A stretch of 64,000 bases of DNA. It comes from Candidatus Rokubacteria bacterium RIFCSPLOWO2_02_FULL_73_56 (GTDB lineage Bacteria > Methylomirabilota > Methylomirabilia > Rokubacteriales > CSP1-6). A model generated the notes under the pieces. That model worked only from the letters and a program-made list of their open reading frames with translations, was not told the DNA's origin and did no database searches. Location: NCBI GenBank assembly GCA_001788495.1, contig MGCF01000111.1:9101-73100 (forward strand). The letters run 5' to 3'. Shown here in pieces: positions 528 through 54,716 of this stretch. Made by a program: the position numbers and the translations under genes. Position 1 is the stretch's first letter. Every line of letters begins with the position of its first letter.

Positions 528-1510
528 AGATCATCCGGGCCGCCACGCTGCTCACGCTGCTCCTGCTCGTTGCCGCGCCGCCGGCGGGGGCGCAGGACGC
601 CTACCCGTCGCGGCCGATCGCGCTCGTCGCGCCGTTCCCGCCGGGCGGCGTCGCCGACCTGACCGCCCGCCCCGTCGCGGCCGCCCTCGAGAAGGTGCTG
701 AAGAACCCCGTGGGTGTGGTCAACAAGACCGGCGCGGCGGGCGCCGTGGGCATGCAGTACGTGGCCACGAGCAAGCCGGACGGCTACACGCTGCTGCTCG
801 CGCTCTCCTCGATCTCGATCATCCCGGAGGCGGACAAGCTCTTCGGCCGCCAGCCGGCGTTCACCGTGGACCAGTTCGAGCCGCTCGCGCTGATCTCGGC
901 CGACCCGACGATCCTGGTCGTGCCCGCGGACAAGCCCTGGAAGACGGCGAAGGACTTCATCGAGGACGCCAGGAAGCGGCCCGGCCAGATCTCGTTCAGC
1001 TCGTCGGGCGTCTACGGCACGCTCCACATGGCGATGGAGCTGCTCTCGCACGCGGCCGGGATCAAGCTTCGCCACGTGCCCTACGCGGGCGCTGGGCCGG
1101 CGCTCACGGCGATCCTCGGCGGCCACGTGGACGCCCTCGCCTCGGGCCCGGCCGTCGTGCTGCCCCACATCAAGTCCGGCAAGCTCCGTCCGCTCGCCGG
1201 CTGGGGCGACACGCGCGTGGCCGCGCTGCCGGACGTGCCGACCTTCAAGGAGCTCGGCTACCCGGACGCGGAGTTCTACATCTGGGCCGGCGTCTTCGCC
1301 CCGCGGGGCACACCCGAGTCCGCGCTCGCCAGGCTCCGCGGGGCGCTCCGCGAGGCCGTCGAGGATCCAGCCTTCAAGGGCGCGATGGACAAGCTGCAGA
1401 CGCCCATCGCGTTCAAGCAGGGGGCGGAGTTCCAGCGCTTCTTCGAGACCGACGCCCGGCGTCTGGCCGAGGGCGTGCGGAAGGTGGGCAAGATCGAGAT
1501 CAAGAAGTAG
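524..1510 (+). CDS. tctC: Bug/TctC-family periplasmic tricarboxylate-binding receptor
   Basis: Signal peptide ending AGAQDAYPSRPI, followed by PFPPGGVADLTARP and the Bug-family pattern KPDGYTLL and SSSGVYGTLH. It is translationally coupled to the upstream TctA gene. Confidence 0.9.
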   Translation: MKIIRAATLLTLLLLVAAPPAGAQDAYPSRPIALVAPFPPGGVADLTARPVAAALEKVLKNPVGVVNKTGAAGAVGMQYVATSKPDGYTLLLALSSISIIPEADKLFGRQPAFTVDQFEPLALISADPTILVVPADKPWKTAKDFIEDARKRPGQISFSSSGVYGTLHMAMELLSHAAGIKLRHVPYAGAGPALTAILGGHVDALASGPAVVLPHIKSGKLRPLAGWGDTRVAALPDVPTFKELGYPDAEFYIWAGVFAPRGTPESALARLRGALREAVEDPAFKGAMDKLQTPIAFKQGAEFQRFFETDARRLAEGVRKVGKIEIKK

Positions 1511-35296: not shown

Positions 35297-36016
35297 ATGA
35301 GGCTCGCGTGGACTCTCACCCTGGCCGTGCCCGTCCTCTTCGCCGTCCCCGCCGCCGCGGAGCTGCCGGAGGGCGCCGAGGCCCTCCACGCGCGGCTCGC
35401 GTCGCGGCTCGCGCCCTCCGTGCGGAGCTGGGTGGGCGGCGAAGCGCGCACGCTCGCCCGCGCGGGAGGCGACGCCGGCGCGCTCCGCGCCGCGGCCCAG
35501 GCGCGCTTCGCCGGGCAGCTCGGCGCCGCCGGCGGCGCCGACATCGAGGCCCTCGCGTTCCTTGTGCTGATGCAGGCGACGCGGGACGCGGAAGCGGACC
35601 TCAAGGCGATCATGGCCCAGGTGAAGGCCGCCAACGCCGCCAAGCAGAAGCTGCGCGACCTCGCCGACAAGGTGCGGCGCGACGTCGCGCAGAACGCCGG
35701 CAAGCGCGACAACGCCCCGTGCCGGCCGCCTCAGTGCGGGGTGGGCCGTGCGGCGCTGGCCGAGGTGGCGGCGCCGCTTGCCGCGGCGCGCGCGCCCGCC
35801 GGCTTCGCCCAGCGGGAGGTCGCCACCCTCCGGGACCTGCGGGCGCTCCACGACGAGCTCAAGGGCAAGCTCGACTCGCTCAACCAGACGAGCGAGATGA
35901 CCTCGCTCCGGCTCCAGATGCTGATGGACCGGCGCTCCAAGTTCATCAGCACGCTCAGCAACATCATGAAGAAGCTCGCCACCACGCAGGACGCGATCGT
36001 CCAGAACCTCAAGTAG
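35297..36016 (+). CDS. Secreted alpha-helical hypothetical protein whose C-terminal helix resembles T3SS needle subunits
   Basis: Sec signal peptide MRLAWTLTLAVPVLFAVPAAAE and Ala-rich helical segments. The C-terminus LRLQMLMDRRSKFISTLSNIMKKLATTQDAIVQNLK aligns without gaps to the PrgI/MxiH tail pattern Q...SN..K.......AI(I/V)QN(F/L)(R/K). Confidence 0.6.
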   Translation: MRLAWTLTLAVPVLFAVPAAAELPEGAEALHARLASRLAPSVRSWVGGEARTLARAGGDAGALRAAAQARFAGQLGAAGGADIEALAFLVLMQATRDAEADLKAIMAQVKAANAAKQKLRDLADKVRRDVAQNAGKRDNAPCRPPQCGVGRAALAEVAAPLAAARAPAGFAQREVATLRDLRALHDELKGKLDSLNQTSEMTSLRLQMLMDRRSKFISTLSNIMKKLATTQDAIVQNLK

Positions 36017-36025
36017 CCGCGCGCG

Positions 36026-37682
36026 TCAGCCCTCGAGGATCGCCGCGATCAGGCCCTCGTAGTCGGGGTCGCCGAGCGGGTCCCAGCCCGGCAGCGCGAA
36101 GCGCCGGAGCACCAGGTCCGCCGCGGCGCCGAGCCAGGGGCACGTGCCGTCGTCCGCCTGGGCGTCGTCCAGCAGCAGCGCCACCTGGGTGAGGCGCGCC
36201 ATGCGCGTGACCAGGCCGCGCATGTGGAGCGCCGCGGCGTCGGGCCCGCGCCGGAGCAGGCCGGCGAGGCTCCCGCGCGCCGAGCAGCAGGTCCTGCGCG
36301 CGCGCGAGCAGCGGGTCGTGGAGCTTGGCGCGGAGCCCGTCGCGCAGGACCTGGGCGACGAGCGTGTTGTGCGGCCCCTCCCAGCTCTCCTGCACGGGCA
36401 CCTCGCGCCAGAGGCGCGGCAGCGGGCTGAAGTCCTCGATCGTGCCGTTGCCGCCCAGGATCTCGATCGCGTGGTGCACGACGAGCCCGGCGTCGGTCGA
36501 GCAGGTGAACTTGGCGAGGTTCACCGCGGTGCGGAACAGCGGGTCGTCCTCGGGAGGCGCGCCCGCGAGCAGGAGCCGGTCCTCCGCGGCGGCGGCGAAG
36601 AGCGTGAGGGCGAGGCCCGCCGCGCCCAGCGCGCGCATCTCGGCGAGCTGCGCGCGCACGGCGGGGAACTCGACGAGCCGCCGGCCGAAGGCCTCGCGCA
36701 GCCGCGCGTAGTGCCACGCCTCGACCCACGCGCGCCGCATCATCGCGCTCGTGCCGATCGCGACGTGCAGGCGCGAGGTGTTGATGACGATGCCGATCAG
36801 GAGCCGGAAGCCCTCGTCGAGCTCGCCGAGCTGCCAGGCGAGCGCGTCGGCGAAGTCGAGCTCGGCCGTCGGCAGCGTGCGGGTGCCGAGCTTGTTCTTG
36901 AGCCGGCGGATCAGGACGCCGTTCGACCGGCCGTCCTCGAGCCGGCGCGGGACCACGAAGAGCGCGACGCCGGCGGTGCCGTCGCGCGCGCCCTCGGGGC
37001 GGGCGCTCACCGCGTAGAGGTCGGCGGCGACGTTCGAGCAGAACCACTTCTCGCCGCTGAGCCGCCACAGGCCGGGCCGGCCGGCCACGGGGCGCGCCAC
37101 GCACGCATTGGCGCCGACGTCCGAGCCCCCCTGGATCTCGGTGACGAACTGGGCGCCGTGCCAGCGGCGGTCGTAGTCGGCGTCGAGGAGGCGCGGCAGC
37201 CACTCGCGCCGCATGAAGTCCGAGCCGGCGCGCTGGATGGCCTTGACGAGGCCCGCGGTGCAGGCGACCGAGCAGAGGTGGGGCGCCTCGCCGTTGAGCC
37301 CGAACAGGTACGTGAGCGCGGCGTGCACGCTCACGCTCCCCGGCTCGCCGAGCGCCGCGAGGATGCCCGAGCGCCAGACCAGCCGGCCGACCTCGTGGTG
37401 GACGGGGTGGACGACGACCTCGTCGGTCCGCTCCCCGACGCGGCTCCAGGGCTCGACGCGGGGCAGGTGCTCGGGGCGGTCGAGCGTGAACGCCGCGCGG
37501 CTCACCGGCCCCGCCGAGTCGGCGCCCGCCTGGCGGAGCGAGGGCAGCGCGCGCGCCAGCCGGTCGCCCGCGACGTGGCGGGCGAGGAGGCGCTGCAGGT
37601 AGCGGTCGTCGTCGTAGAAGTTGGCGGGCTTCGCCGCCTCCCACGCACCGAGGAGCGAGCGTCCGTGCTCATGGCGTTCCAT
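36026..37682 (-). pseudogene. AidB-like acyl-CoA dehydrogenase interrupted by a frameshift (or an assembly indel)
   Basis: GGAGGG RBS, then MERHEHG at 37682. The ACAD/AidB pattern is clear (FVTEIQGGSDVG, WRLSGEKWFCSN, FGRRLVEFPAVR, ILGGNGTIEDFSPLPRLWREVPVQESWEGPHN). Homology continues to about ...LLARAQDLLLGA and then switches frame. The true-looking C-terminus (GLLRRGPDAAALHMRGLVTRMARLTQVALLLDDA...YEGLIAAILEG) is the separate track ORF 36026-36223. The shift lies somewhere around 36225-36300, most likely 36255-36290. Confidence 0.7.
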
Positions 37683-37752
37683 GGCGGTCCCTCCGCGGCG
37701 ATAATAGCGTGTCGCCCGACCGGCCGCCCGGGGCGAACGGAGGAAGGGACTG

Positions 37753-38457
37753 GTGCAAACGGCGCTCGCGATCCGCCACGTCGCATTCGAGGACCTCGGC
37801 ACGCTCGGCGAGGTGCTCGCGCGCCGGGGCGTGGCGGTCGCGTACGCCGAGGCGCCGCTCGACGACCTCGCGGCGCTCGATCCGCTCGCCCCCGACCTGC
37901 TCGTGGTCCTCGGGGGGCCGATCGGCGCCTACGAGGAGGAGGCGTATCCCGTCGTCCGCGACGAGCTGCGCCTGCTCGACAAGCGCCTGGCCGCGGGTCG
38001 ACCGACGCTCGGGATCTGCCTGGGGAGCCAGCTGATGGCCCGGGCCCTCGGCGCGCGCGTCCACCCCGGCGCGCGCAAGGAGATCGGCTGGGCGCCCCTC
38101 GAGCTGACCGCGGCCGGGGCGCGCTCCTGCCTCGCCGAGCTCGGCGGGGCGCCGGTCCTCCACTGGCACGGCGACACGTTCGAGCTGCCGGACGGCGCCG
38201 TGCGCCTGGCCTCGACCGCGCCGTGCGCCAACCAGGCGTTCGCCTGGGGCCGGTGCGCGCTCGGGCTGCAGTTCCACGTGGAGGTGACGGCGCGGGGGCT
38301 CGAGCGCTGGCTGGTCGGCCACGCGTGCGAGATCGCGGCGACGCCCGGCGTGACGGTCGCCGGGCTGCGGGCCGACACGGCGCGCTGGGGCCCCGCGCTC
38401 GAGCAGGCCGGGCACCGGGTCCTCGCGCGCTGGCTCGACGAGGCGGAGGCCGCGTGA
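37753..38457 (+). CDS. Class-I glutamine amidotransferase domain protein
   Basis: GTG start. Nucleophile elbow GICLGSQLM, and a His/Glu pair in LQFHVE. Confidence 0.8.
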   Translation: MQTALAIRHVAFEDLGTLGEVLARRGVAVAYAEAPLDDLAALDPLAPDLLVVLGGPIGAYEEEAYPVVRDELRLLDKRLAAGRPTLGICLGSQLMARALGARVHPGARKEIGWAPLELTAAGARSCLAELGGAPVLHWHGDTFELPDGAVRLASTAPCANQAFAWGRCALGLQFHVEVTARGLERWLVGHACEIAATPGVTVAGLRADTARWGPALEQAGHRVLARWLDEAEAA

Positions 38458-44032: not shown

Positions 44033-46045
44033 GTGGCGAACCGCCTGGCGCGCGAGACGAGCCCCTATCTGCTCCAGCACAAGGACAACCCGGTCGACTG
44101 GTACCCGTGGGGCGAGGAGGCGCTCGCCCGCGCGCGCGCCGAGGACAAGCCCGTGCTCCTGTCCGTGGGCTACTCGGCGTGCCACTGGTGCCACGTGATG
44201 GAGCACGAGTCGTTCGAGGACCCGGACATCGCCGCGCTGATGAACCGGCACTTCGTCTGCATCAAGGTGGACCGCGAGGAGCGGCCCGACGTGGATCAGA
44301 TCTACATGCAGGCCGTGCAGTCCATGACGGGCCACGGCGGCTGGCCACTGACGTGCTTCCTCACGCCCGAGGGCGCACCGTTCTACGGCGGCACCTACTT
44401 CCCGCCGACTGAACGCCACGGGCTGCCCGCGTTCCCACGGCTGCTCCAGGCGCTCGCCGACGCGTGGGCGAACCGCCGTGGCGAAGTCACGGAATCGTCC
44501 CGCCAGATCCGGGAGACGCTCGCGCAGGGCGAGCGCCTGCGCGCCTCGACCACGCTCCTGACCGACGAGATCCTGTTCGGCGCCTTCCAGGCCGTCTCGG
44601 CGCAGTTCGACGAGCGCGACGGCGGCCTCGGCGGCGCGCCGAAGTTCCCGCAGCCGATGCTCTGGGAGTTCGTCCTGCGCTTCGCCCGGCGGAGCGACAA
44701 CGCGCGCGCCCGCCAGATGGCCCACACGACGCTCAGCACGATGGCGCGCGGCGGGATGTACGACCAGGTCGGCGGCGGCTTCCACCGCTACGCGGTGGAC
44801 GCGCAGTGGCTCGTGCCGCACTTCGAGAAGATGCTGTACGACAACGCCCAGCTCGCCTCGCTGTACCTGCACGGCTGGCTCGCCTTCGGCGACCCCGAGT
44901 GCCGGCGCGTCTGCGAGGAGACGCTCGACTACCTCCTGCGCGAGATGGCCGACCCGGCGGGCGGCTTCTACTCGGCGACCGACGCCGACAGCGAGGGCCA
45001 CGAGGGCAAGTTCTTCGTCTGGACGCCCGAGGAGCTGCGCGCGGTGCTGGGCCCGGCCGACGCCGAGTGGGCCGGGCGCTACTGGGGCGTGGACCGCGGG
45101 GCGAACTTCGAGGGCCAGAGCATCCTCTGGGTGCCCGGCGAGCCCGACGCCGCGCGCGTCGCGCCGCTCCGCGCGAAGCTCTACGAGGCGCGGCGACGCC
45201 GGGTGCCGCCGGGGCTCGACGACAAGGTGCTCGCCGCCTGGAACGGCCTGGCGTGCCGCGCCCTGGCCGAGGCCGGGCGCGCGCTCGGCCGGGCCGACTA
45301 CGTGGCCGCCGCCGTCAGGAACGCGGACTTCCTGCTGCGCGAGCTGCGGGGCAACGGGCGGCTGCTGCGCACCTGGAAGGCGGGGCAGGCGAAGCTCAAG
45401 GGCTACCTCGAGGACCACGCGATGGTCGCCGCGGCGCTCCTCGAGGTGTACGAGGCGACGTTCGAGCGCCGCTGGCTCGACGCGGCGCGCGGCCTCGCGG
45501 ACGAGCTGCTGCGCCTGTTCTGGGACGAGAAGCTCGAAGGCTTCTGGGACACCGGGAGCGACCACGAGCCGCTCATCGTCCGCCCGCGCAACCTGTTCGA
45601 CAACGCGGTGCCGTGCGGCAGCTCGGTCGCGATCGAAACGCTGCTGCGCCTGGCGGTGCTCACGGGCGAGCGGCGGTACGAGACGCTGGCGATGGGCGCC
45701 CTGCGGCCGATGGCCGATCTGATGACGCGCCACGCGACGGGCTTCGGTCGCTTCCTCTGCGCGCTCGACTTCCACCTGGGGCCCGTGGTCGAGGTCGCGC
45801 TGGTGGCGCCGCGCGCGGGCGACGGCCTCGAGCCGCTCGTCGCCGAGGTCTTCGGGCGCTTCCTGCCGAACCGCGTCGTCGCGGGGATGGTCGCGGGCGA
45901 CGCCGCGGCGGCCGCGGGCGTGCCGCTCCTGCAGGGGCGGAGCGCGGTGGACGGCAGGGCGACGGCCTACGTCTGCCGCGACTACGCGTGCGAGCTGCCC
46001 GTCACCGACCGCGCCGCGCTCGCCCGCCAGCTCGACGCCGTCTAG
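44033..46045 (+). CDS. DUF255 thioredoxin-domain protein (YyaL-like) with a six-hairpin glycosidase-like C-domain
   Basis: [22 protein letters not shown]...[19 protein letters not shown]...[15 protein letters not shown] start. Confidence 0.9.
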
Positions 46046-46049
46046 TCAA

Positions 46050-46571
46050 TCAGCGCTCGAGATCGACGGCGAGCGCGCCGTTGATCCGGTTGGTGAAGTT
46101 AGCCGTCGCGACGGTCGCGGCCAGCTCGACGATCCCGCGATCCGACAGATGCCGCCGGAGCTCGGCGTGGAGCGCCTCGTCCACCGCGGCGAGCGTCGTG
46201 AGCTGCTCGGCGTAGCGCAGCACGAGCCGCTCGACCGGCGCGAAGGCGGCGCTCGTCCCCCACGTGGCGAGCCCGGCGACCTGCGCGTCCGTGAGCCCCG
46301 CCCTCAGCCCGAGGGCCGTGTGGTGCGCGAGTCAGTAGGCGCAGCCGTTGACCTGCGAGGTCTTGAGGTACGCCAGCTCGCGGAGCTTCGCGTCGAGCGT
46401 CGCCGTCCTGAGCGCGCCCAGGAGTGTCTCGGCGGCGGCGGCCGCGGCGGGGAAATGGGCGAGCGCTTTGAAGAAGTTGAGCACGCGGCCGGCGCGCTGG
46501 CGCACGCCCGCGAACACGCGCGCGACGTCCTCGGGCGCGCCCTCGGGCTCGACGTACGGGACGCGGGCCAT
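46050..46571 (-). CDS. Carboxymuconolactone decarboxylase / AhpD-like family protein with an in-frame TGA at the second redox-motif Cys (selenocysteine candidate, or a recent nonsense mutation)
   Basis: ATG at 46571 (MARVPYVEPEG...). The translation reads ...SQVNGCAY-TGA(46332-46334)-LAHHTALGLRAGLTDAQV...NRINGALAVDLER, in frame, to the TGA at 46050-46052. The family motif NxCxYCxxxH fits exactly with the TGA in the second Cys position. Confidence 0.65.
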
Positions 46572-46689: not shown

Positions 46690-48276
46690 ATGATCATCAG
46701 GAGCACCAGTCCTGACGTCACCGTTCCCGAGGTCTCCATCACCGAGTACGTGCTCCGTCACGCGGAGCGGCTCGGCGACAAGCCCGCGATGGTGGACGGG
46801 CCGAGCGGCCGCACGCTGACGTACCGGCAGCTCGCCGACGGCGTCCGCCGCGCGGCCACGGGCCTGGCCCGCCGCGGGTTCAAGAAGGGCGACGTCTTCG
46901 CGATCTACAGCCCGAACCTCCCGGAGTACGCGGTGGCCTTCAACGCGGTCGCGTCCCTCGGCGGCGTCAACACGACCGTCAACCCGCTCTACACCGCCGA
47001 CGAGCTGGTCAAGCAGCTCGAGGACTCGGGGGCGCGCTTCCTGGTGACGGTCGGGCCCTTCCTGGACAAGGCGCGGGAGGCGGCCGCCAGGGCGCGTGTC
47101 GAGGAGGTGTTCGTGTTCGGGACGGCGGAGGGCGCGCGCCCGTTCGCCGAGCTGCTCGCGGCGCCGCCGAGTCCGCCGTCGGTGGCCATCGACGCCCGGC
47201 GCGACGTGGTCGTGCTGCCGTACTCGAGCGGCACGACCGGCCTGCCCAAGGGCGTCATGCTCACGCACGAGAACCTCGTCGCCAACCTCTGCCAGTGCCT
47301 CGGCATGCAGAACTTCGACGGCTTCACCGAGCAGGACACCATCCTGGCCGTGCTGCCGTACTTCCACATCTACGGCATGGTGGTCATCATGATGTTCGGC
47401 CTCTGCCAGGGGGCCACCGTCGTCAGCATGCCGCGCTTCGACATGCAGGAGTTCCTCGGGATCGTCCAGAAGTACCGGGTGACGGTCGCGCCCATCGTGC
47501 CGCCGATCGTGCTCGGCATGGTCAAGCACCCGGCCGTGAGCCAGTTCGACCTCTCCAGCCTGCGGCTGATCTTCTCCGGCGCGGCGCCGCTCGGCGAGGA
47601 GATCGCGCGGGCGCTGAGCAAGCGGCTCGGCTGTCCCGTCGTGCAGGGCTACGGCATGACCGAGGCGAGCCCCGTCACGCATTTGAGCCCCACGCGGAAC
47701 GCGCCGGTCAAGCCGGGCTCGATCGGCATGGTCGTGCCGAGCACCGAGGTGAAGCTCGTGGACGTCGTCACCGGCGCCGAGCTGGGCAAGAAGCAGGAGG
47801 GCGAGCTGCTGATCCGCGGGCCCCAGATCATGAAGGGCTACCTCGGCCGGCCCGAGGACACCGCGCAGGCGATCGACACGGAGGGCTGGTACCACTCGGG
47901 CGACGTCGGCTACGTGGACGACGAGGGCTGGTTCTACATCGTCGACCGCACCAAGGAGCTGATCAAGTACAAGGGGATGCAGGTCGCGCCGGCGGAGCTC
48001 GAGGCCCTGCTGGCGACCCACCCGGCCGTGCTCGACGCCGCGGTCATCCGCAAGGCGGACGAGGAGGCGGGCGAGGTGCCCAAGGCCTTCGTGGTCCTCA
48101 AGCCTGACGCGGCCGCGCGCGCGACGACGGCCGAGGCGCTCATGGCCTGGGTCGCCGAGCGCGTCGCGCCGCACAAGCGCGTGCGCCACGTCGAGTTCAT
48201 CGACCAGATCCCCAAATCGGCCTCGGGCAAGATCCTGCGCCGCATGCTGGTCGAGCGCGAGAAAGCGGCGGGCTAG
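46690..48276 (+). CDS. 4-coumarate-CoA ligase-like AMP-dependent synthetase
   Basis: LPYSSGTTGLPKGVMLTH, GYGMTE, GELLIRGPQIMKGYL, WYHSGDVG, DRTKELIKYKG and SGKILRR. Confidence 0.9.
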   Translation: MIIRSTSPDVTVPEVSITEYVLRHAERLGDKPAMVDGPSGRTLTYRQLADGVRRAATGLARRGFKKGDVFAIYSPNLPEYAVAFNAVASLGGVNTTVNPLYTADELVKQLEDSGARFLVTVGPFLDKAREAAARARVEEVFVFGTAEGARPFAELLAAPPSPPSVAIDARRDVVVLPYSSGTTGLPKGVMLTHENLVANLCQCLGMQNFDGFTEQDTILAVLPYFHIYGMVVIMMFGLCQGATVVSMPRFDMQEFLGIVQKYRVTVAPIVPPIVLGMVKHPAVSQFDLSSLRLIFSGAAPLGEEIARALSKRLGCPVVQGYGMTEASPVTHLSPTRNAPVKPGSIGMVVPSTEVKLVDVVTGAELGKKQEGELLIRGPQIMKGYLGRPEDTAQAIDTEGWYHSGDVGYVDDEGWFYIVDRTKELIKYKGMQVAPAELEALLATHPAVLDAAVIRKADEEAGEVPKAFVVLKPDAAARATTAEALMAWVAERVAPHKRVRHVEFIDQIPKSASGKILRRMLVEREKAAG

Positions 48277-48878: not shown

Positions 48879-49250
48879 TCAGGGCGCAACGGCGTAGGCC
48901 AGCCAGAGGCCCAGCACGAGCGCAAAGCCCGCCCAGACCCGCATGAAGATCGGCCCGCGCGCCGACCACCACTCGCGAAGCCGGCGAAAGCGCGCGACCC
49001 CGACGAGAGGCGTGACGAGCCCCGCCACGACGATGACGGCGCCGAGGAGGCGGACGACCTCGGGTGCGCGCGAGGTGGGTGCGGTGAGGACGAGCGCCAC
49101 GCCCAGGACGACGCGGAGAGCCGCCGCGGCGTAGAGCCCGCCCGGGCTCTCGAGACGCCGCACGACGCCCACGAGTCTCGCCGGCGCGACGACGCCAAGC
49201 GCGCCCAGGGCGGCGACGAGGAGGCTCAGGACGAGGGCGACGAGCCACAT
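48879..49250 (-). CDS. Small hypothetical membrane protein (about 4 TM segments)
   Basis: Hydrophobic translation starting MWLVALVLSLLVAALGALGVV. The start was chosen at ATG 49250. The track start at 49295 would add a non-hydrophobic leader. Confidence 0.5.
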   Translation of the reverse strand: MWLVALVLSLLVAALGALGVVAPARLVGVVRRLESPGGLYAAAALRVVLGVALVLTAPTSRAPEVVRLLGAVIVVAGLVTPLVGVARFRRLREWWSARGPIFMRVWAGFALVLGLWLAYAVAP

Positions 49251-50062
49251 GCGACCACTCGATGCGCTCCCTGGCCCTCGTGCCACAGGCCCCAACGCGC
49301 TCTTATGGCCTTCGCGATGATGCTCTTGGTTCTTTCCACGGCATCAGGGTTGGGCTCAACGCGGGCTATCCGGGCCCTTCCGTATGTGAAAGTGTAGGAG
49401 AAGACGTCGTCGTAACCGTGAGTTGCGCCCTTCAACTCATGGAACTCCACGGGGTCCCGGCCTCGTGCCAGGCCCGAACAGGCGTGGCTGTAACCCTCGT
49501 CCCTGCCGACGTCGTCGAGGTCGCCAAAGAAGATATGCACCTGGGTTGGCCTCCCGTATGTGCTCCGGCACCTATCAGGGCCCCAGCCGCCAGGGTAGAG
49601 GGCGAAAACAAAGGTTGGCGCCGCACGCTCGCCCGTGAAATGGGGTCCAGCCTCAAGCGCCTGTTGGCCTCCGCGCGAGAATCCCATGAGCGCGAAGCGG
49701 CTCGTATCGATCCTGGGATGAGTTTTGAGGAGATCCCAGGCTATGGCCGCGTCTTCGGTGTACATGGATCGCGCGGGGTTGGTCGTGCGATTCCGAATCC
49801 CCGCGTTGTCAACGATCGCTGACGCGACTCCCAGGGTCTTGAACCAAGAGGCCCATTTCTCGGCGCGTCTGTTGCCGCCCCCGGTTCCTTGATAGAAGAT
49901 GACGACGGGAAACTTCCCATCTCTCTCCGGGATCGCAACAGTAAGATTCTTCTGCACCATGTGCACCATGTCCGGCGTGATGGTCGTGGTTGCACATGAG
50001 AGCACACCGAAACAAAGAGCAACAACCAGAAGGGCAATGCCTTTGTGCGTCAGCGGGTTCAC
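49226..50062 (-). CDS. Dienelactone-hydrolase-like alpha/beta hydrolase, probable lipoprotein, in a lower-GC region
   Basis: N-terminal signal with Cys (LCFGVLSCATT), nucleophile elbow GFSRGG, and a late HGYDD. Its codon usage is visibly less GC3-biased than that of neighbouring genes. Confidence 0.7.
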   Translation of the reverse strand: MNPLTHKGIALLVVALCFGVLSCATTTITPDMVHMVQKNLTVAIPERDGKFPVVIFYQGTGGGNRRAEKWASWFKTLGVASAIVDNAGIRNRTTNPARSMYTEDAAIAWDLLKTHPRIDTSRFALMGFSRGGQQALEAGPHFTGERAAPTFVFALYPGGWGPDRCRSTYGRPTQVHIFFGDLDDVGRDEGYSHACSGLARGRDPVEFHELKGATHGYDDVFSYTFTYGRARIARVEPNPDAVERTKSIIAKAIRARWGLWHEGQGAHRVVACGSSPSS

Positions 50063-50745
50063 TGGTGGGGGCGGAATCGTCGATCCGGGTCTATAGGCCT
50101 ATCCGGATACGACTGCGGATTCCGGACCCAGCCACCAGGTCCTTCACGGTGCCCGACACGAGCACCTCGCCTGCGCCGGCCAGTGATGCGACGCGCGCCC
50201 CCGTGTGGACCGCAATGCCGCTGAGCTTGTCCCCCAGGATCTCGCACTCTCCCGTGTGGAGCCCGGCACGGATCTCCAGACCCAGGCGGCGCATCTCCCG
50301 CACGATCGCGCCAGCTGCATGGAAATTCTTGCCGCTCGACCCCTGGCATCCACTGCCAGACCCTTCGCGCTGGATTCCACGTCCCGCCGGCCTGCTTCAC
50401 CCGGTCGCGCACTGCCACGTCGGCAAAGGCGACGCGTAACCCGACGATCTGGTCGTGGGCGAAGCGAGGCGGTGGCGGTCGCCAATCGCGTTCGGCGACG
50501 AGGAGTTCGAGGGTTTTGAACCGCTTCTTCCGCTGCGCGAGGAGCTGCTCCGTACCCGCGCGGGGGGACTCGCGCGCGCGGCGGGGTGGCGCGACCCGGG
50601 CGGAGGGTTCGGCCGGTGCGATCGATGAGGCGCGGGAAGGGGGGCCGGCGGGGCTCGGCTCGTGGACGGCGGCCGGCGATCCGCACCGGCGGCCCTCCGG
50701 CAGCACCGCGTACGAGAGCGGAAGCTCCCTGAGAACGCTGGTCAT
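50059..50745 (-). CDS. Hypothetical ORF with a DUF5710-like motif; its 3' half reads through the cyclase remnant in another frame
   Basis: LRVAFADVAVRDRVKQAGGTWNPARRVWQW resembles the VPFxxKDxAKxxGAxWDxxxKxW motif of DUF5710 domains found in mobile-element proteins. The N-terminus is Pro/Ala/Ser-rich. Past about 50340 the frame has no independent support. Confidence 0.3.
   Translation of the reverse strand: MTSVLRELPLSYAVLPEGRRCGSPAAVHEPSPAGPPSRASSIAPAEPSARVAPPRRARESPRAGTEQLLAQRKKRFKTLELLVAERDWRPPPPRFAHDQIVGLRVAFADVAVRDRVKQAGGTWNPARRVWQWMPGVERQEFPCSWRDRAGDAPPGSGDPCRAPHGRVRDPGGQAQRHCGPHGGARRITGRRRRGARVGHREGPGGWVRNPQSYPDRPIDPDRRFRPHQ
50091..50330 (-). pseudogene. Internal fragment of a class III adenylate/guanylate cyclase catalytic domain (remnant)
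   Basis: The translation HAAGAIVREMRRLGLEIRAGLHTGECEILGDKLSGIAVHTGARVASLAGAGEVLVSGTVKDLVAGSGI matches the C-terminal half of CYCc domains. The N-terminal half and the last strands are absent. Confidence 0.65.
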
Positions 50746-50936
50746 GCCACGGTTCGCCCTCTGTCAGCAAACAGGATAGACGACGCGCCCGGGTCGCGCA
50801 ATGTCCGTGTTCCACCACGTCGGACGTGCCGGGCGAGCACCAGGAGTCGGGCGCGCCCGATCGACCCGCTTAACGAAGTCGTCGGGAAGCGATATCATCA
50901 CCTGCGCCACGGAACTCTCGTGAGGAGGCGCCAAGG

Positions 50937-52886: not shown

Positions 52887-52960
52887 GTCGCGTGGGGGGC
52901 CCCGACATGGCCCCGGGCTCGCCGCGGGCGGAGTCGACGAGGTGGTATACTCCCAGTGGC

Positions 52961-53059
52961 GTCGTGGGGGGAGGGATTCCTGAGAACCGGGTGCGGCCCG
53001 GGACCCCTCGAACCTGACCTGGATAATCCCAGCGAAGGGAACACGGCGGGCCCGACGAC
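52961..53059 (+). promoter_or_regulatory. TPP (THI-box) riboswitch
   Basis: The conserved core is present: ggggagggattcCTGAGAaccgggtgcggcccggGACCCctcGAACCTGAcCTGGATAATcCCAGCGaAGGGAAca. A P1-like pairing (gtcgt...acgac) closes it. It sits directly upstream of thiS. Confidence 0.9.
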
Positions 53060-53098: not shown

Positions 53099-53299
53099 AT
53101 GCGGATCTCGGTCAACGGCAAGGAGCTGGAGGTCACCGACGGGCTCAGCGTGGAGGGCCTGCTCGCGCACCTCGGCGTCAGGCGCGAGTACACGGCCGTC
53201 GCCGTGAACCGCGAGGTGACGCCGAAGAGCGCGTACACGGCGACCACGCTCCACGACGGCGACCGGGTGGAGATCGTCAGACCCATGGGGGGCGGCTAG
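53099..53299 (+). CDS. thiS: Sulfur-carrier protein ThiS
   Basis: 66 aa, [12 protein letters not shown]..., ending in the obligatory GG (PMGGG). Confidence 0.9.
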
Positions 53300-53300
53300 C

Positions 53301-54080
53301 ATGGCGGACACGGATCTGGTCCTGGGCGGCAAGGAGTTCTCGTCGCGGCTCATCGTCGGCACGGGCAAGTACGCGACGATGGAGATCATGAAGCAGGCGC
53401 ACGAGGCGTCGGGCGCGGAGATCGTCACGGTCGCGCTCCGGCGCGTGAGCCTGCCGTCGGGCGAGTCCCTCCTGGACCACCTCGACACCACGCGCTACAC
53501 GCTGCTGCCGAACACGGCGGGCTGCTACACGGCCGACGAGGCGGTGCGCACGGCGTACCTGGCGCGCGAGGCGGGGCTGGGCGAGATGGTCAAGCTCGAG
53601 GTCATCGGCGACTCGCGCACGCTCTTCCCGGACGTGGAGGGCCTGCTCGAGGCGACGCGCACGCTCGCGCGCGACGGCTTCGTCGTCATGCCGTACACGA
53701 ACGACGACCCGGTGACGGCCAAGAAGCTCGAGGACGCGGGCGCGGCGTGCGTGATGCCGCTCGGCGCGCCGATCGGCTCGGGCCTCGGCATCCGCAACCC
53801 GTACAACATCAAGATCATCCTCGAGACGGTGTCGGTGCCGGTCATCGTGGACGCGGGCGTGGGCACCGCCTCGGACGCGGCGATCGCGATGGAGCTCGGC
53901 TGCGACGGCGTGCTGATGAACACGGCCATCGCGGGCGCCCAGGACGCGGTCGCGATGGCGCGCGCGATGCGCCTGGCCGTCGAGGCCGGGCGGCTCGCGT
54001 ACCGCGCGGGCCGGATCGGCAAGAAGCTCTACGCGACCGCCTCCTCGCCGCTCGAGGGCGTCCCGGATTGGACGAGCTGA
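53301..54080 (+). CDS. thiG: Thiazole synthase ThiG
   Basis: [40 protein letters not shown] and [18 protein letters not shown]. Confidence 0.95.
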
Positions 54081-54691
54081 GGCTCACCCTCGTCAGCGAT
54101 CGCACGCAGACGCGGGGCCGTGAGCTGGTCACGGTCGTCGGCGACTGCCTCGGGGCGGGGCTCCGGGCCGTGCAGGTGCGCGAGAAGGACCTCGGCGCCG
54201 CGGACCTGGCGTTCCTCTGCCGGCGCATCCGCGTGCTCACGCTCGACGCGCAGGCGCTCCTGATCGTCAACGACCGCCTGGACGTGGCGCTCGCCGTCGG
54301 TGCCGACGGCGTGCAGCGCACGTCCACCTCGCTCGACGTGGAGGACATCCGACGGGTCGCCGGCCCGGCCCTCCGCGTCGGCGCCTCGGTCCATTCGCTG
54401 CCCGAGGCGCTCGACGCCGAGGCGAAGGGCGCCGACTTCCTCGTGTTCGGGCCGATCTACGAGACGCCGTCCAAGCGCCCTTACGGCCCGCCCCAGGGGC
54501 TCGACCGCCTCGCGAAGCTCGCCGCCGGCGTGCGCCGGCCCGTCGTCGCGATCGGCGGGATCACGCCCGCGCGCGTGCGCGACGTGCGCCTGGCCGGCGC
54601 CTTCGGCGTCGCCGCGATCTCCGCGATCCTCGACACCGACGCGCCGGCCGACGCCACGCGGCGGTTCCTCGACGCGCTCGCCGCCGCGTGA
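54068..54691 (+). CDS. thiE: Thiamine-phosphate synthase ThiE
   Basis: [44 protein letters not shown] and VAIGGI. The proposed TTG start at 54068 overlaps the thiG end, so the start is uncertain. Confidence 0.85.
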
Positions 54692-54716
54692 AGCTCCGCG
54701 TGGTCGCGTGAGCGGC

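Follow-up and report, generated by a model that had tools for sequence, protein, structure and literature searches.

An AhpD-like gene of Candidatus Rokubacteria with an in-frame UGA at its redox motif: a probable selenoprotein of the C-x-x-U type

The earliest reports of AhpD-like proteins with a C-x-x-U motif came from the Sargasso Sea and GOS metagenomes (Zhang, Fomenko and Gladyshev 2005, PMC1088965; Zhang and Gladyshev 2008, PMC2398784), and these proteins are also catalogued as selenoproteins in PMC13188914; TIGR01926 is the model given for them in a 2026 review. Members of this family (COG2128/TIGR01926/PF02627) have selenocysteine (Sec) at the second Cys position of C-x-x-C, their SECIS lies inside the coding sequence just downstream with a G opening its small apical loop, and Cys homologues are widespread. 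Two Cys proteins are useful for comparison. One is the AhpD-like PA0269 from Pseudomonas aeruginosa (PDB 2o4d/2ijc), which is weakly active as a hydroperoxidase (PMC3141380), and the other is Mycobacterium tuberculosis AhpD (Cys130-x-x-Cys133, His137, Glu118), which serves as the reductant of the AhpC peroxiredoxin.

Herein we compare with these systems an AhpD-like gene, coding for a small enzyme of the antioxidant type, found in a 64-kb stretch of DNA (hereafter the window) from an uncultured groundwater member of Candidatus Rokubacteria. The NCBI phylum of this group is Rokuibacteriota, which we take to lie within Methylomirabilota in GTDB. The gene shares with the known family the fold, the position of the Sec codon, the hairpin and the Cys homologues; it is different in that the known members come mainly from marine metagenomes, whereas its own clade has its centre in Rokubacteria and in soil or groundwater metagenomes. 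As argued below, it is very probably a genuine selenoprotein gene of Candidatus Rokubacteria, and we are equally confident in regarding it as an unannotated member of the already known AhpD-like C-x-x-U family. An earlier note on this DNA, made from the letters and a list of open reading frames, had stated that AhpD-like proteins with C-x-x-Sec are listed in bacterial surveys, and the three surveys cited above bear this out.

Reading frame, family and active site

Translation of the minus strand gives 79 codons, a TGA, 93 further codons and a terminal TGA (Table 1), and the product of the joined frame reads MARVPYVEPEG...NGCAY*LAHH...AVDLER*, where the asterisks mark the two TGA codons. Its N-terminal start (MARVPY/MAHVPY) and its C-terminal end (D-L-E/P) are common to the homologues. 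With a Cys put at the TGA, it matches Pfam CMD PF02627 (E = 5e-18; 65.3 bits, cutoff 23), and it also matches the NCBIfam AhpD core domain TIGR00778 (49.7 bits, cutoff 27.8). Accordingly, the view of the earlier note that the joined frame is a CMD/AhpD protein of normal length is confirmed by both the translation and the Pfam match. With Cys substituted for Sec, the cutoff of TIGR01926 'peroxidase-related enzyme' is narrowly missed (78.0 vs 81.8 bits); among the Sec relatives, L014 scores above it at 95.2 and the others score 55-74. The closest of the AhpD-related (seleno)protein models is NF053654 'GroundWater_YciW: YciW-related (seleno)protein', with which the product shares the length class and the AhpD type in a match over model positions 1-171 of 179 (E = 2.5e-20). 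However, the clade of the window gene is a relative and not a member of what these models describe, since the equivalog cutoffs of NF053654, NF041238 and NF041047 are not reached (73 vs 310, 26.8 vs 175 and 25.1 vs 110 bits), and five other members of the Sec clade also score only 78-89 bits with NF053654.

In an alignment with 19 homologues, the codon-80 TGA falls on the second, nearly invariant Cys of N-G-C-x-Y-C-x-x-x-H, exactly where the earlier note had placed it; it also aligns with a Cys in 35 metagenomic Cys forms. In M. tuberculosis AhpD, the second Cys is the attacking nucleophile. The nearest solved structure is PA0269 (PDB 2o4d, E = 6e-21), where the motif N-G-C-A-Y-C is identical and Glu36, Cys48, Tyr50, Cys51 and His55 correspond to Glu65, Cys77, Tyr79, Sec80 and His84, so that the whole proton-relay set is matched, with Sec at the second-Cys position. 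On the other hand, PA0269 has Cys and not Sec, a shorter N-terminus (145-165 aa), and modest similarity outside the active-site helices. M. tuberculosis AhpD shares the helix pair C-x-x-C...H, the logic of the proton relay and the +4 spacing, Cys133-His137 corresponding to Sec80-His84 (PMC3141380), but its overall identity is very low and its chain topology is another one, and the window gene has no adjacent ahpC. From these correspondences the product would be a 173-residue all-helical AhpD-like thiol/selenol oxidoreductase with the active site C77-A-Y-U80, where Glu65, Tyr79 and His84 would form the proton relay and Sec would stand in the second-Cys position. The enzyme would cycle between the selenol/thiol and a C77-U80 selenenylsulfide, and it may re-reduce a peroxiredoxin-type partner or be a weak hydroperoxidase itself. 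As for a functional partner nearby, a convergent Thioredox_DsbH gene was considered and set aside, for it is syntenic in the five closest relatives only.

Table 1. Positions in the window of the gene, its active-site codons and the hairpin
Feature	Position	Strand	Details and basis
Predicted AhpD-like selenoprotein CDS	46050..46571	minus	173 sense codons, Sec = codon 80; translation, homologue ends, structure match
Start codon	ATG 46571-46569	minus	
Terminal stop	TGA 46050-46052	minus	
In-frame UGA, codon 80, probable Sec of the C77-A-Y-U80 redox motif	46332..46334	minus	alignment, relatives, six assemblies
Cys77 codon, first (resolving) Cys of C-x-x-U	46341..46343	minus	invariant column; = Cys48 of PA0269 (PMC3141380)
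His84 codon, predicted proton-relay His, +4 from Sec80	46320..46322	minus	invariant column; = PA0269 His55, M. tuberculosis AhpD His137 (PMC3141380)
Glu65 codon, predicted proton-relay Glu	46377..46379	minus	invariant column; 12 residues before Cys77, as PA0269 Glu36 to Cys48
SECIS-like hairpin	46298..46318	minus	bSECIS criteria, comparative pairing, rare codons
Hairpin 5' arm GCCCUC	46316-46311	minus	
Hairpin apical loop GGGCU	46310-46306	minus	
Hairpin 3' arm GAGGGC	46305-46300	minus	

In public records the gene is misannotated as a fragment, without a selenoprotein label. In fact, public gene callers give a 79-aa fragment, sometimes together with a 57-aa fragment starting at GTG 46223, and the closest full-length proteins in the databases, with identity of at most 51%, all have Cys. 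Taken literally, the two predicted ORFs would mean that translation really terminates at UGA-80 and that the 79-residue peptide is functional, either alone or alongside a C-terminal piece with a start of its own. Such a reading seems to us highly improbable, because the solved homologue has one AhpD-like domain, which aligns across the TGA (query residues 40-166), and a product terminated there would lack the second catalytic residue together with His84 and the remainder of the active-site helix. Moreover, no in-frame ATG, GTG or TTG occurs between codons 81 and 117, and codons 81-116 are nonetheless conserved and under purifying selection.

The TGA codon among relatives and assemblies

The same codon is TGA in three of the eight closest genome relatives, namely L007 (65% identity), L008 (a Rokuibacteriota MAG, 46%) and L014 (Terriglobales, 36%), and in 43 of the 78 metagenomic relatives (36-82% identical), including all of the five closest ones (77-82% identity). 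This answers the question raised by the earlier note whether orthologues carry TGA or TGC. In the TGA-bearing relatives, the frames stay open to the common C-terminus without frameshift or second stop, and they comprise 34 distinct sequences, among which dS rises to values above 1, which means that they are not one clone. In a neighbour-joining tree, where Sec and Cys forms are intermingled, the window gene falls inside a large clade whose members all encode Sec but for a single Cys form, and the hairpin of this nested Cys form is partly mismatched. In comparisons with the three closest relatives, dN/dS takes similar values on the two sides of the TGA, 0.20-0.37 before it and 0.38-0.46 after it. 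Judged by these ratios, the sequence 3' of the TGA is under purifying selection, in line with the earlier observation that this segment has not decayed.

These comparisons bear directly on the possibility that the locus is a pseudogene, in which a recent nonsense mutation turned TGC into TGA in a Cys-type AhpD-like gene whose downstream part has not yet decayed. The two codons are indeed one base apart, the callers give only the short fragments, and the nearest full-length proteins in the databases are Cys forms. However, the TGA is common to 46 other loci down to 36% identity without frameshift or second stop, the downstream dN/dS stays at the values given above, and the hairpin described below is confined to TGA genes and upheld by compensatory changes and rare codons. 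The nonsense mutation, which the earlier note had offered as an alternative, is effectively refuted by these comparative data, and we consider a pseudogene very improbable.

The other alternative of that note was that one base of a TGC codon had been misread or misassembled, and the source is a metagenome-assembled genome, where single-base errors do occur. Here the same TGA is found in six independently made assemblies of this Candidatus Rokubacteria population, two of them NCBI MAGs (GCA_001790275.1, RIFCSPHIGHO2_02_FULL_73_26, and GCA_001790345.1, RIFCSPLOWO2_12_FULL_73_47) and four from ENA. At other sites they diverge from the window by 0.1-0.25%, the sole difference within the gene being one synonymous change downstream of the TGA; moreover, the exact 79-aa N-terminal product is recorded on 37 contigs. 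As the six assemblies agree on the TGA, they argue strongly against such an error, whose probability we take to be practically negligible.

A SECIS-like hairpin downstream of the UGA

In Escherichia coli fdhF, the SECIS is a hairpin located directly 3' of the UGA inside the ORF. The criteria for bacterial SECIS elements (bSECIS, PMC13188914) ask for a loop of 3-9 nt, a stem of 4-16 bp, a distance of 16-37 nt from the UGA to the loop, a G in the first two loop positions, and a minimum free energy of -7.5 kcal/mol or lower. The window hairpin, whose first base is the 16th nucleotide after the UGA, lies within these ranges with a 5-nt loop starting with GG, a 6-bp stem, a UGA-to-loop distance of 21 nt, and a dG of -10.3 to -11.9 kcal/mol; the stem is lengthened by an outer C-G pair (46318/46298) beyond a G.G mismatch. 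It resembles the fdhF-type SECIS and the bSECIS consensus in being an in-ORF hairpin after the UGA with a small loop that opens with G followed by G/U, and it is different in that the putative stem in the clade has just 6-8 bp and no obvious bulged U, and in that the window loop has GGG rather than GGU. Compared with the clade consensus, the window hairpin is somewhat weaker, having 6 bp and the G.G mismatch against 8 bp, and its loop is GGGCU where the clade majority has GGUCA. With Rfam, the only hit at gathering thresholds in the whole window is a TPP riboswitch, no family being found for the hairpin, and a permissive scan of 46200-46400 yields just two chance-level matches (E = 5-7), neither of them to the hairpin.

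Folding of the 65 nt after the UGA gives z = +0.45 against shuffled sequences, which is no better than chance in a genome of 73% GC. Since the fold of the single sequence is indistinguishable from shuffles, the significance of the hairpin comes from the comparative data alone. Across the 34 distinct TGA genes, 94.1% of the cells in the hairpin columns (17-24/30-37 after the UGA) are paired, while slid controls have 32-58%; double changes are seen at three pairs (G-C to A-U, C-G to U-A), and the observed covariation score is reached by none of 500 shuffles. By contrast, the same columns in 37 TGC/TGT homologues are paired at 37.5%, equal to the shuffled and slid controls. Accordingly, the GC stem-loop that the earlier note had pointed out as SECIS-like does lie within the bSECIS ranges, and it is conserved and covarying; of the folding check suggested there, the single-sequence part gave no signal, while the presence of the hairpin in TGA genes and its absence from Cys homologues did.

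Codon usage tells a similar story. For the Arg of the 3' arm, 25 of the 34 Sec genes use AGG, although AGG accounts for 2.9% of the Arg codons in the window, and the Cys homologues use CGN for Arg at this position. Likewise, the Gly codon in the loop is GGT (28) or GGG (6) in the Sec genes and never GGC, which makes up 74% of the Gly codons in the window. The synonymous sites in the hairpin show selection on the RNA. Conservation of the peptide T-A-L-G-x-R-x-G could be part of the source of the hairpin conservation, but the codon choice argues against the peptide explaining all of it.

Decoding of the UGA and what the gene means

Modelled on the bacterial Sec system, the decoding route would be as follows. 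When the ribosome reaches UGA-80, the hairpin would present its small G-G-N loop downstream within the coding sequence and act as a bacterial SECIS, recruiting the SelB.GTP.Sec-tRNA(Sec) complex so that Sec is inserted and termination does not take place; both the SelB dependence and the incorporation of Se are predicted by analogy. Translation would then run through the remaining 93 codons and end at the real stop, a UGA that lacks a hairpin of this kind.

The same UGA and hairpin might instead be recoded without Sec, by read-through or by reading UGA as Trp, Cys or Gly with the hairpin as stimulator, or UGA might be read as sense in general. Besides the reassignment of UGA that occurs in some uncultured bacteria, two observations lend this some weight. 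In the window, the UGA is followed by a C, and UGA-C is a leaky termination context; moreover, selA, selB, selD and tRNA-Sec are found neither in the 64-kb window nor in about 6 kb beyond each end. More specifically, no Sec machinery appears in a Pfam scan of the ten window ORFs with SelA/SelB/SelD-like size or in the precomputed Pfam tables for the window centre and ends with about 6 kb beyond each end, and no tRNA is predicted by ARAGORN, either within the window or at 46 related loci. However, the base after the UGA varies among orthologues (C, U, G, A), the codon replaces the redox Cys of C-x-x-C, which is the signature of Sec, the AhpD-like proteins are an established Sec family, and the spacing, size and loop G-G/U of the hairpin fit the SelB-type SECIS consensus. 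As for general sense reading, the terminal codons of the 25 confidently coding ORFs in the window are TGA (15), TAG (10) and TAA (0), and a scan of the window for a TGA with strong coding signal on both sides returns this site and one ordinary gene end only. Since TGA ends 15 of these 25 genes, including the AhpD-like gene itself, no general reassignment of UGA has taken place, just as the earlier note had supposed in calling TGA an ordinary stop elsewhere in the window. Recoding without Sec is on the whole improbable, and we give an equally slight chance to the more specific case of a lineage without Sec machinery, in which the conserved UGA and hairpin would be decoded without canonical SelA/SelB/SelC/SelD, through stimulated read-through or with some residue other than Sec at the redox site.

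For the insertion of Sec, which we prefer, the wider setting is of interest. Sec use has been reported in Methylomirabilota, including recent reports of groundwater members rich in selenoproteins; a literature search for Rokubacteria with selenocysteine or selenium returned no title or abstract bearing on the question. On the Rokuibacteriota contig L008, a second and unrelated gene, TlpA-like, has a TGA at its redox Cys followed by a hairpin. With a clade centred on Rokubacteria and a TlpA-like U-x-x-C neighbour in some relatives, one could go further and imagine, though with little probability, that the two selenoproteins form a redox relay characteristic of bacteria from soil and groundwater.

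To sum up, the current understanding of selenoproteins is unchanged by this gene, the C-x-x-U AhpD-like family being known since 2005. What it probably adds is direct evidence of selenocysteine use in Candidatus Rokubacteria, which fits the groundwater reports mentioned above. As no NCBIfam (seleno)protein equivalog covers the clade, annotation pipelines keep truncating the gene in Rokubacteria and related soil and groundwater genomes, and the approximately 45 sequences with a clean SECIS alignment are now available as material for such a model. Moreover, the interleaved Sec and Cys forms, together with the Cys form nested in the Sec clade, make up a small natural experiment on the exchange of Sec and Cys and on the gain and loss of SECIS elements.

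Reading frame and reality of the in-frame TGA

As the earlier note had proposed, the frame of the AhpD-like gene stays open past the TGA at codon 80: 79 codons precede it and 93 codons lie between it and the terminal TGA, and the translation reads MARVPYVEPEG...SQVNGCAY*LAHHTALGLRAG...NGALAVDLER*, which the ORF list of the window splits into two separate ORFs. With Cys substituted at the TGA, the product scores above the cutoffs of the Pfam CMD model PF02627 (65.3 bits where 23 suffices, E = 5e-18) and of TIGR00778, the AhpD core domain model of NCBIfam (49.7 bits where 27.8 suffices), in line with the proposed CMD/AhpD-like assignment. When 19 homologues from the databases are aligned with it, the TGA takes, again as proposed, the place of the second Cys of N-G-C-x-Y-C-x-x-x-H, which hardly varies among them, and E65, C77 and H84 are among the invariant columns.

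An assembly or sequencing error at a TGC codon, the latter one of the two alternatives named in the earlier note, is excluded, since codon 80 is TGA in all six retrieved loci and the assemblies they come from, which across the retrieved regions depart from the window at some 0.1-0.25% of sites, are independent reconstructions of one population. The sole within-gene difference among the six is a synonymous T/C (GCT/GCC) at gene position 471, downstream of the TGA. An acetyl-CoA synthetase of the window shows 100% identity with proteins of Candidatus Rokubacteria bacterium RIFCSPLOWO2_12_FULL_73_47 and RIFCSPHIGHO2_02_FULL_73_26, and the neighbouring 670-aa thioredoxin-domain protein has identical copies in several ENA assemblies and on contigs of both GCA_001790275.1 and GCA_001790345.1.

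Genome-wide reassignment of UGA is not the explanation either, since TGA, taken from the start as an ordinary stop here, ends 15 of the 25 confidently coding ORFs of the window (GC3 above 0.9; TAG 10, TAA 0) as well as the AhpD-like gene itself, and a scan of the window for TGA with a strong third-position GC signal on both sides brought up nothing but this site and a single ordinary gene end.

Coordinates of the AhpD-like gene, its hairpin, neighbouring features and features of related contigs
Feature	Sequence	Position	Strand	Remark
AhpD-like gene	window	46050-46571	-	
In-frame TGA	window	46332-46334	-	codon 80
Terminal TGA	window	46050-46052	-	
79-aa gene call	window	46335-46571	-	
57-aa gene call	window	46050-46223	-	
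Hairpin 5' arm	window	46316-46311	-	GCCCUC; starts at 16th nt after UGA
Hairpin loop	window	46310-46306	-	GGGCU
Hairpin 3' arm	window	46305-46300	-	GAGGGC
Thioredox_DsbH-domain gene	window	44033-46045	+	convergent; stop codons of the two genes 4 nt apart
Acyl-CoA synthetase-type gene	window	46690-48276		divergent from AhpD-like gene
TPP riboswitch RF00059	window	52957-53058	+	58.2 bits against gathering score 54.3
thiS-thiG-thiE	window	53099-54700		
ORF with length offset	window	36009-37802	-	offset at ~36224-36277
24-nt repeat	window	36271-36317		weak
Lower-GC segment	window	~49200-50800		GC 65-68% against about 73%
TlpA-like gene	L008 (Rokuibacteriota MAG)	~955-1497		TGA at 1195
TlpA-like gene	L121, L122			TGA at 1000
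TlpA-like gene	L140, L142			TGA at 476
Putative CMD/AhpD-like paralogue	L166	2-679		

Conservation of the codon and of the hairpin behind it

Related orthologues, whose codon at this position the earlier note had suggested checking, share the TGA. In a genome scan with one genome per species it stands at exactly the same codon in L007 (an uncultured bacterium, 65% identity, ...NRCHY*FTHH...), L008 (a Candidatus Rokuibacteriota MAG, 46%, ...NGCHY*ATHN...) and L014 (a Terriglobales MAG, 36%, ...NGCEY*TKAH...), and in the further-off matches the codon is TGC or TGT throughout. Metagenomes yielded 80 loci, in 78 of which the motif could be located, with TGA in 43, TGC in 31 and TGT in 4; the five nearest (L087-L091, 77-82% identity) all carry TGA, and wherever a TGA locus has enough sequence, its frame is open to the common family C-terminus. 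By neighbour joining, the window gene falls inside a large clade that encodes Sec throughout save for one nested Cys form, L164, and the Sec forms L014, L115, L152 and L162 are scattered among Cys clades, which is the usual pattern of Sec/Cys exchange.

The locus L164 has TGT at 356, within the motif C-R-Y-C-A-T-H-H, and keeps a partly mismatched hairpin, CGGCCTTC GGACA GACGGTCG; it looks like a recent Sec-to-Cys conversion in which the SECIS is beginning to decay.

Against the three closest relatives, dN/dS (Nei-Gojobori) is 0.20-0.37 before the TGA and 0.38-0.46 after it. The downstream segment, described earlier as not decayed, is thus under purifying selection, so that the reading of the gene as a pseudogene fails, and with it the second alternative of the note, a TGC-to-TGA nonsense mutation.

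The GC stem-loop reported just after the UGA is present, arms and loop alike. In the suggested folding of this region, the sequence taken alone folds no better than shuffles (z = +0.45), as expected at 73% GC. The hairpin agrees with the published model of the bacterial SECIS (bSECIS) on all four criteria. [quoted passage not shown] Rfam gave no match at the hairpin.

The evidence from comparison across genes is clear. The first 54 nt from the UGA align gap-free in 34 distinct TGA genes, where an 8-bp helix (columns 17-24 with 30-37) has standard pairs in 94.1% of cells, and shifting the 3' arm by 1-3 nt drops the pairing to 32-58%. Two-sided changes occur in three pairs, C-G to U-A at two and G-C to C-G or U-A at the third, and none of 500 column shuffles matched the observed percentage paired or covariation score. 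Between the window and L007 the change is G-C to A-U at the stem base, and between the window and L008 it is C-G to U-A. In most of the clade the stem has 8 bp and the loop is GGUCA; the window form is slightly weaker. The same columns serve as a control in 37 distinct TGC/TGT homologues, where 37.5% of cells are paired, indistinguishable from shuffled and slid controls.

Codon choice tells RNA-level from protein-level constraint on the hairpin. The 3'-arm Arg codon is AGG in 25 of the 34 Sec genes, a codon making up only 2.9% of Arg codons in the genes of the window, and Cys homologues use CGN; the loop-opening Gly codon in Sec genes is GGT (28) or GGG (6) and never GGC, the commonest choice in Cys homologues and, at 74%, the main Gly codon of the window.

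Likely mechanism and genomic surroundings

Among solved structures, the nearest are two AhpD-like proteins, PA0269 from P. aeruginosa (2o4d/2ijc, E = 6e-21) and 7xw1, and the alignment spans query residues 40-166, straight through the TGA. A genuine stop at codon 80, yielding a truncated product, would therefore sever the one domain midway along the active-site helix. PA0269 has weak H2O2-reducing activity and a proton relay of Glu36, Cys48, Tyr50, Cys51 and His55, equivalent to Glu118, Cys130, His132, Cys133 and His137 of M. tuberculosis AhpD (PMC3141380). The corresponding positions in the window protein are Glu65, Cys77, Tyr79, Sec80 and His84, with Sec in place of Cys51. In M. tuberculosis AhpD the second Cys is the nucleophile attacking the peroxiredoxin partner, and Sec generally takes the place of the attacking Cys, a rule that the position of Sec80 fits. 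We infer from this position a thiol/selenol oxidoreductase, which would cycle through a C77-U80 selenenylsulfide and might serve as reductant of a peroxiredoxin-type protein or itself reduce hydroperoxides. The window protein has no evident signal peptide.

The neighbouring DsbH gene is kept only in the five closest relatives, and therefore no functional link is claimed. No selA, selB, selD or tRNA gene was found in the window and about 6 kb beyond each end. That the lineage has the Sec trait is supported indirectly by the literature, which describes 63 predicted selenoprotein genes in one Methylomirabilota MAG from groundwater as well as [NiFeSe] hydrogenases of Sec type in Methylomirabilota, and independently by a further TGA gene in relatives. 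Five related contigs carry, 0.7-0.9 kb upstream of the AhpD-like Sec gene, a thioredoxin-fold gene of TlpA/ResA type in which a TGA stands in frame where W-C-x-x-C has its first Cys (FLASW*PHCRREAP, FWATW*PHCSRELP); a hairpin comes after the TGA, and the N-terminus resembles a twin-arginine or Sec signal peptide. It is a second candidate selenoprotein (U-x-x-C) beside the C-x-x-U gene, and the pair recalls the Prx-like/AhpD-like gene pairs of the GOS study.

In seven Sec loci (L007, L137, L149, L151, L157, L158, L166) a gene that by eye resembles a second CMD/AhpD-like paralogue, without C-x-x-C, stands immediately upstream, a possible tandem arrangement of Sec form and non-redox paralogue. 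Elsewhere in the window, the TPP riboswitch lies directly upstream of thiS-thiG-thiE, an ordinary arrangement. BLAST with the NCBI and ENA loci gives an offset of ~60 nt, by which L001-L004 exceed the window; this is a polymorphism of the population, a 20-codon indel or duplication that keeps the frame, and Tandem Repeats Finder detects only the weak repeat nearby. The lower-GC segment, called as 247 aa and 67-70 aa in NCBI MAGs and as 244 aa and 228 aa in ENA assemblies, may vary within the population.

Family placement and annotation

C-x-x-Sec AhpD-like proteins do appear in bacterial surveys, as the earlier note had stated. The Sargasso Sea study described C-x-x-U AhpD-like proteins as a new selenoprotein family with 27 sequences (PMC1088965); in the GOS data they are among the most abundant families, AhpD-like 1 with 299 sequences and AhpD-like 2 (pfam02627) with 70, both C-x-x-U (PMC2398784); and a 2026 catalogue lists them under TIGR01926, PF02627, NF041238 and NF041047 (PMC13188914). 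The window protein reaches 78.0 bits with TIGR01926, just short of the cutoff of 81.8, scores 73 against the equivalog cutoff of 310 for the curated (seleno)protein model NF053654, where five more Sec-clade members score similarly low, and lies far below the equivalog cutoffs of NF041238 and NF041047, both scored for the window protein only. It is a member of the broad AhpD-like C-x-x-U family and works like it; it belongs to none of the curated equivalogs.

With the conserved TGA, the purifying selection and the comparative hairpin evidence, both the observation of the earlier note and its interpretation prove right: the gene very probably encodes a selenoprotein in which UGA-80 is read as Sec, and non-Sec recoding, a pseudogene, a truncated product and an error share the small probability that is left.

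In public gene calls the first part of the gene is a 79-aa product, its exact sequence on 37 contigs (NCBI, JGI, ENA, Logan), and the end is sometimes a separate 57-aa product. The selenoprotein gene is systematically mis-annotated across assemblies, cut to 79 aa. The last 45 residues of P0096, a 158-aa protein on a 1682 bp ENA contig, are identical to the end of the gene, and its N-terminus appears unrelated, resembling an aminotransferase by eye; the contig is most likely a metagenome chimera.

Altogether, the window gene is an unannotated newcomer within the known AhpD-like C-x-x-U kind; its interest is modest, and its value lies chiefly in annotation and in the record of Sec use in Rokubacteria.
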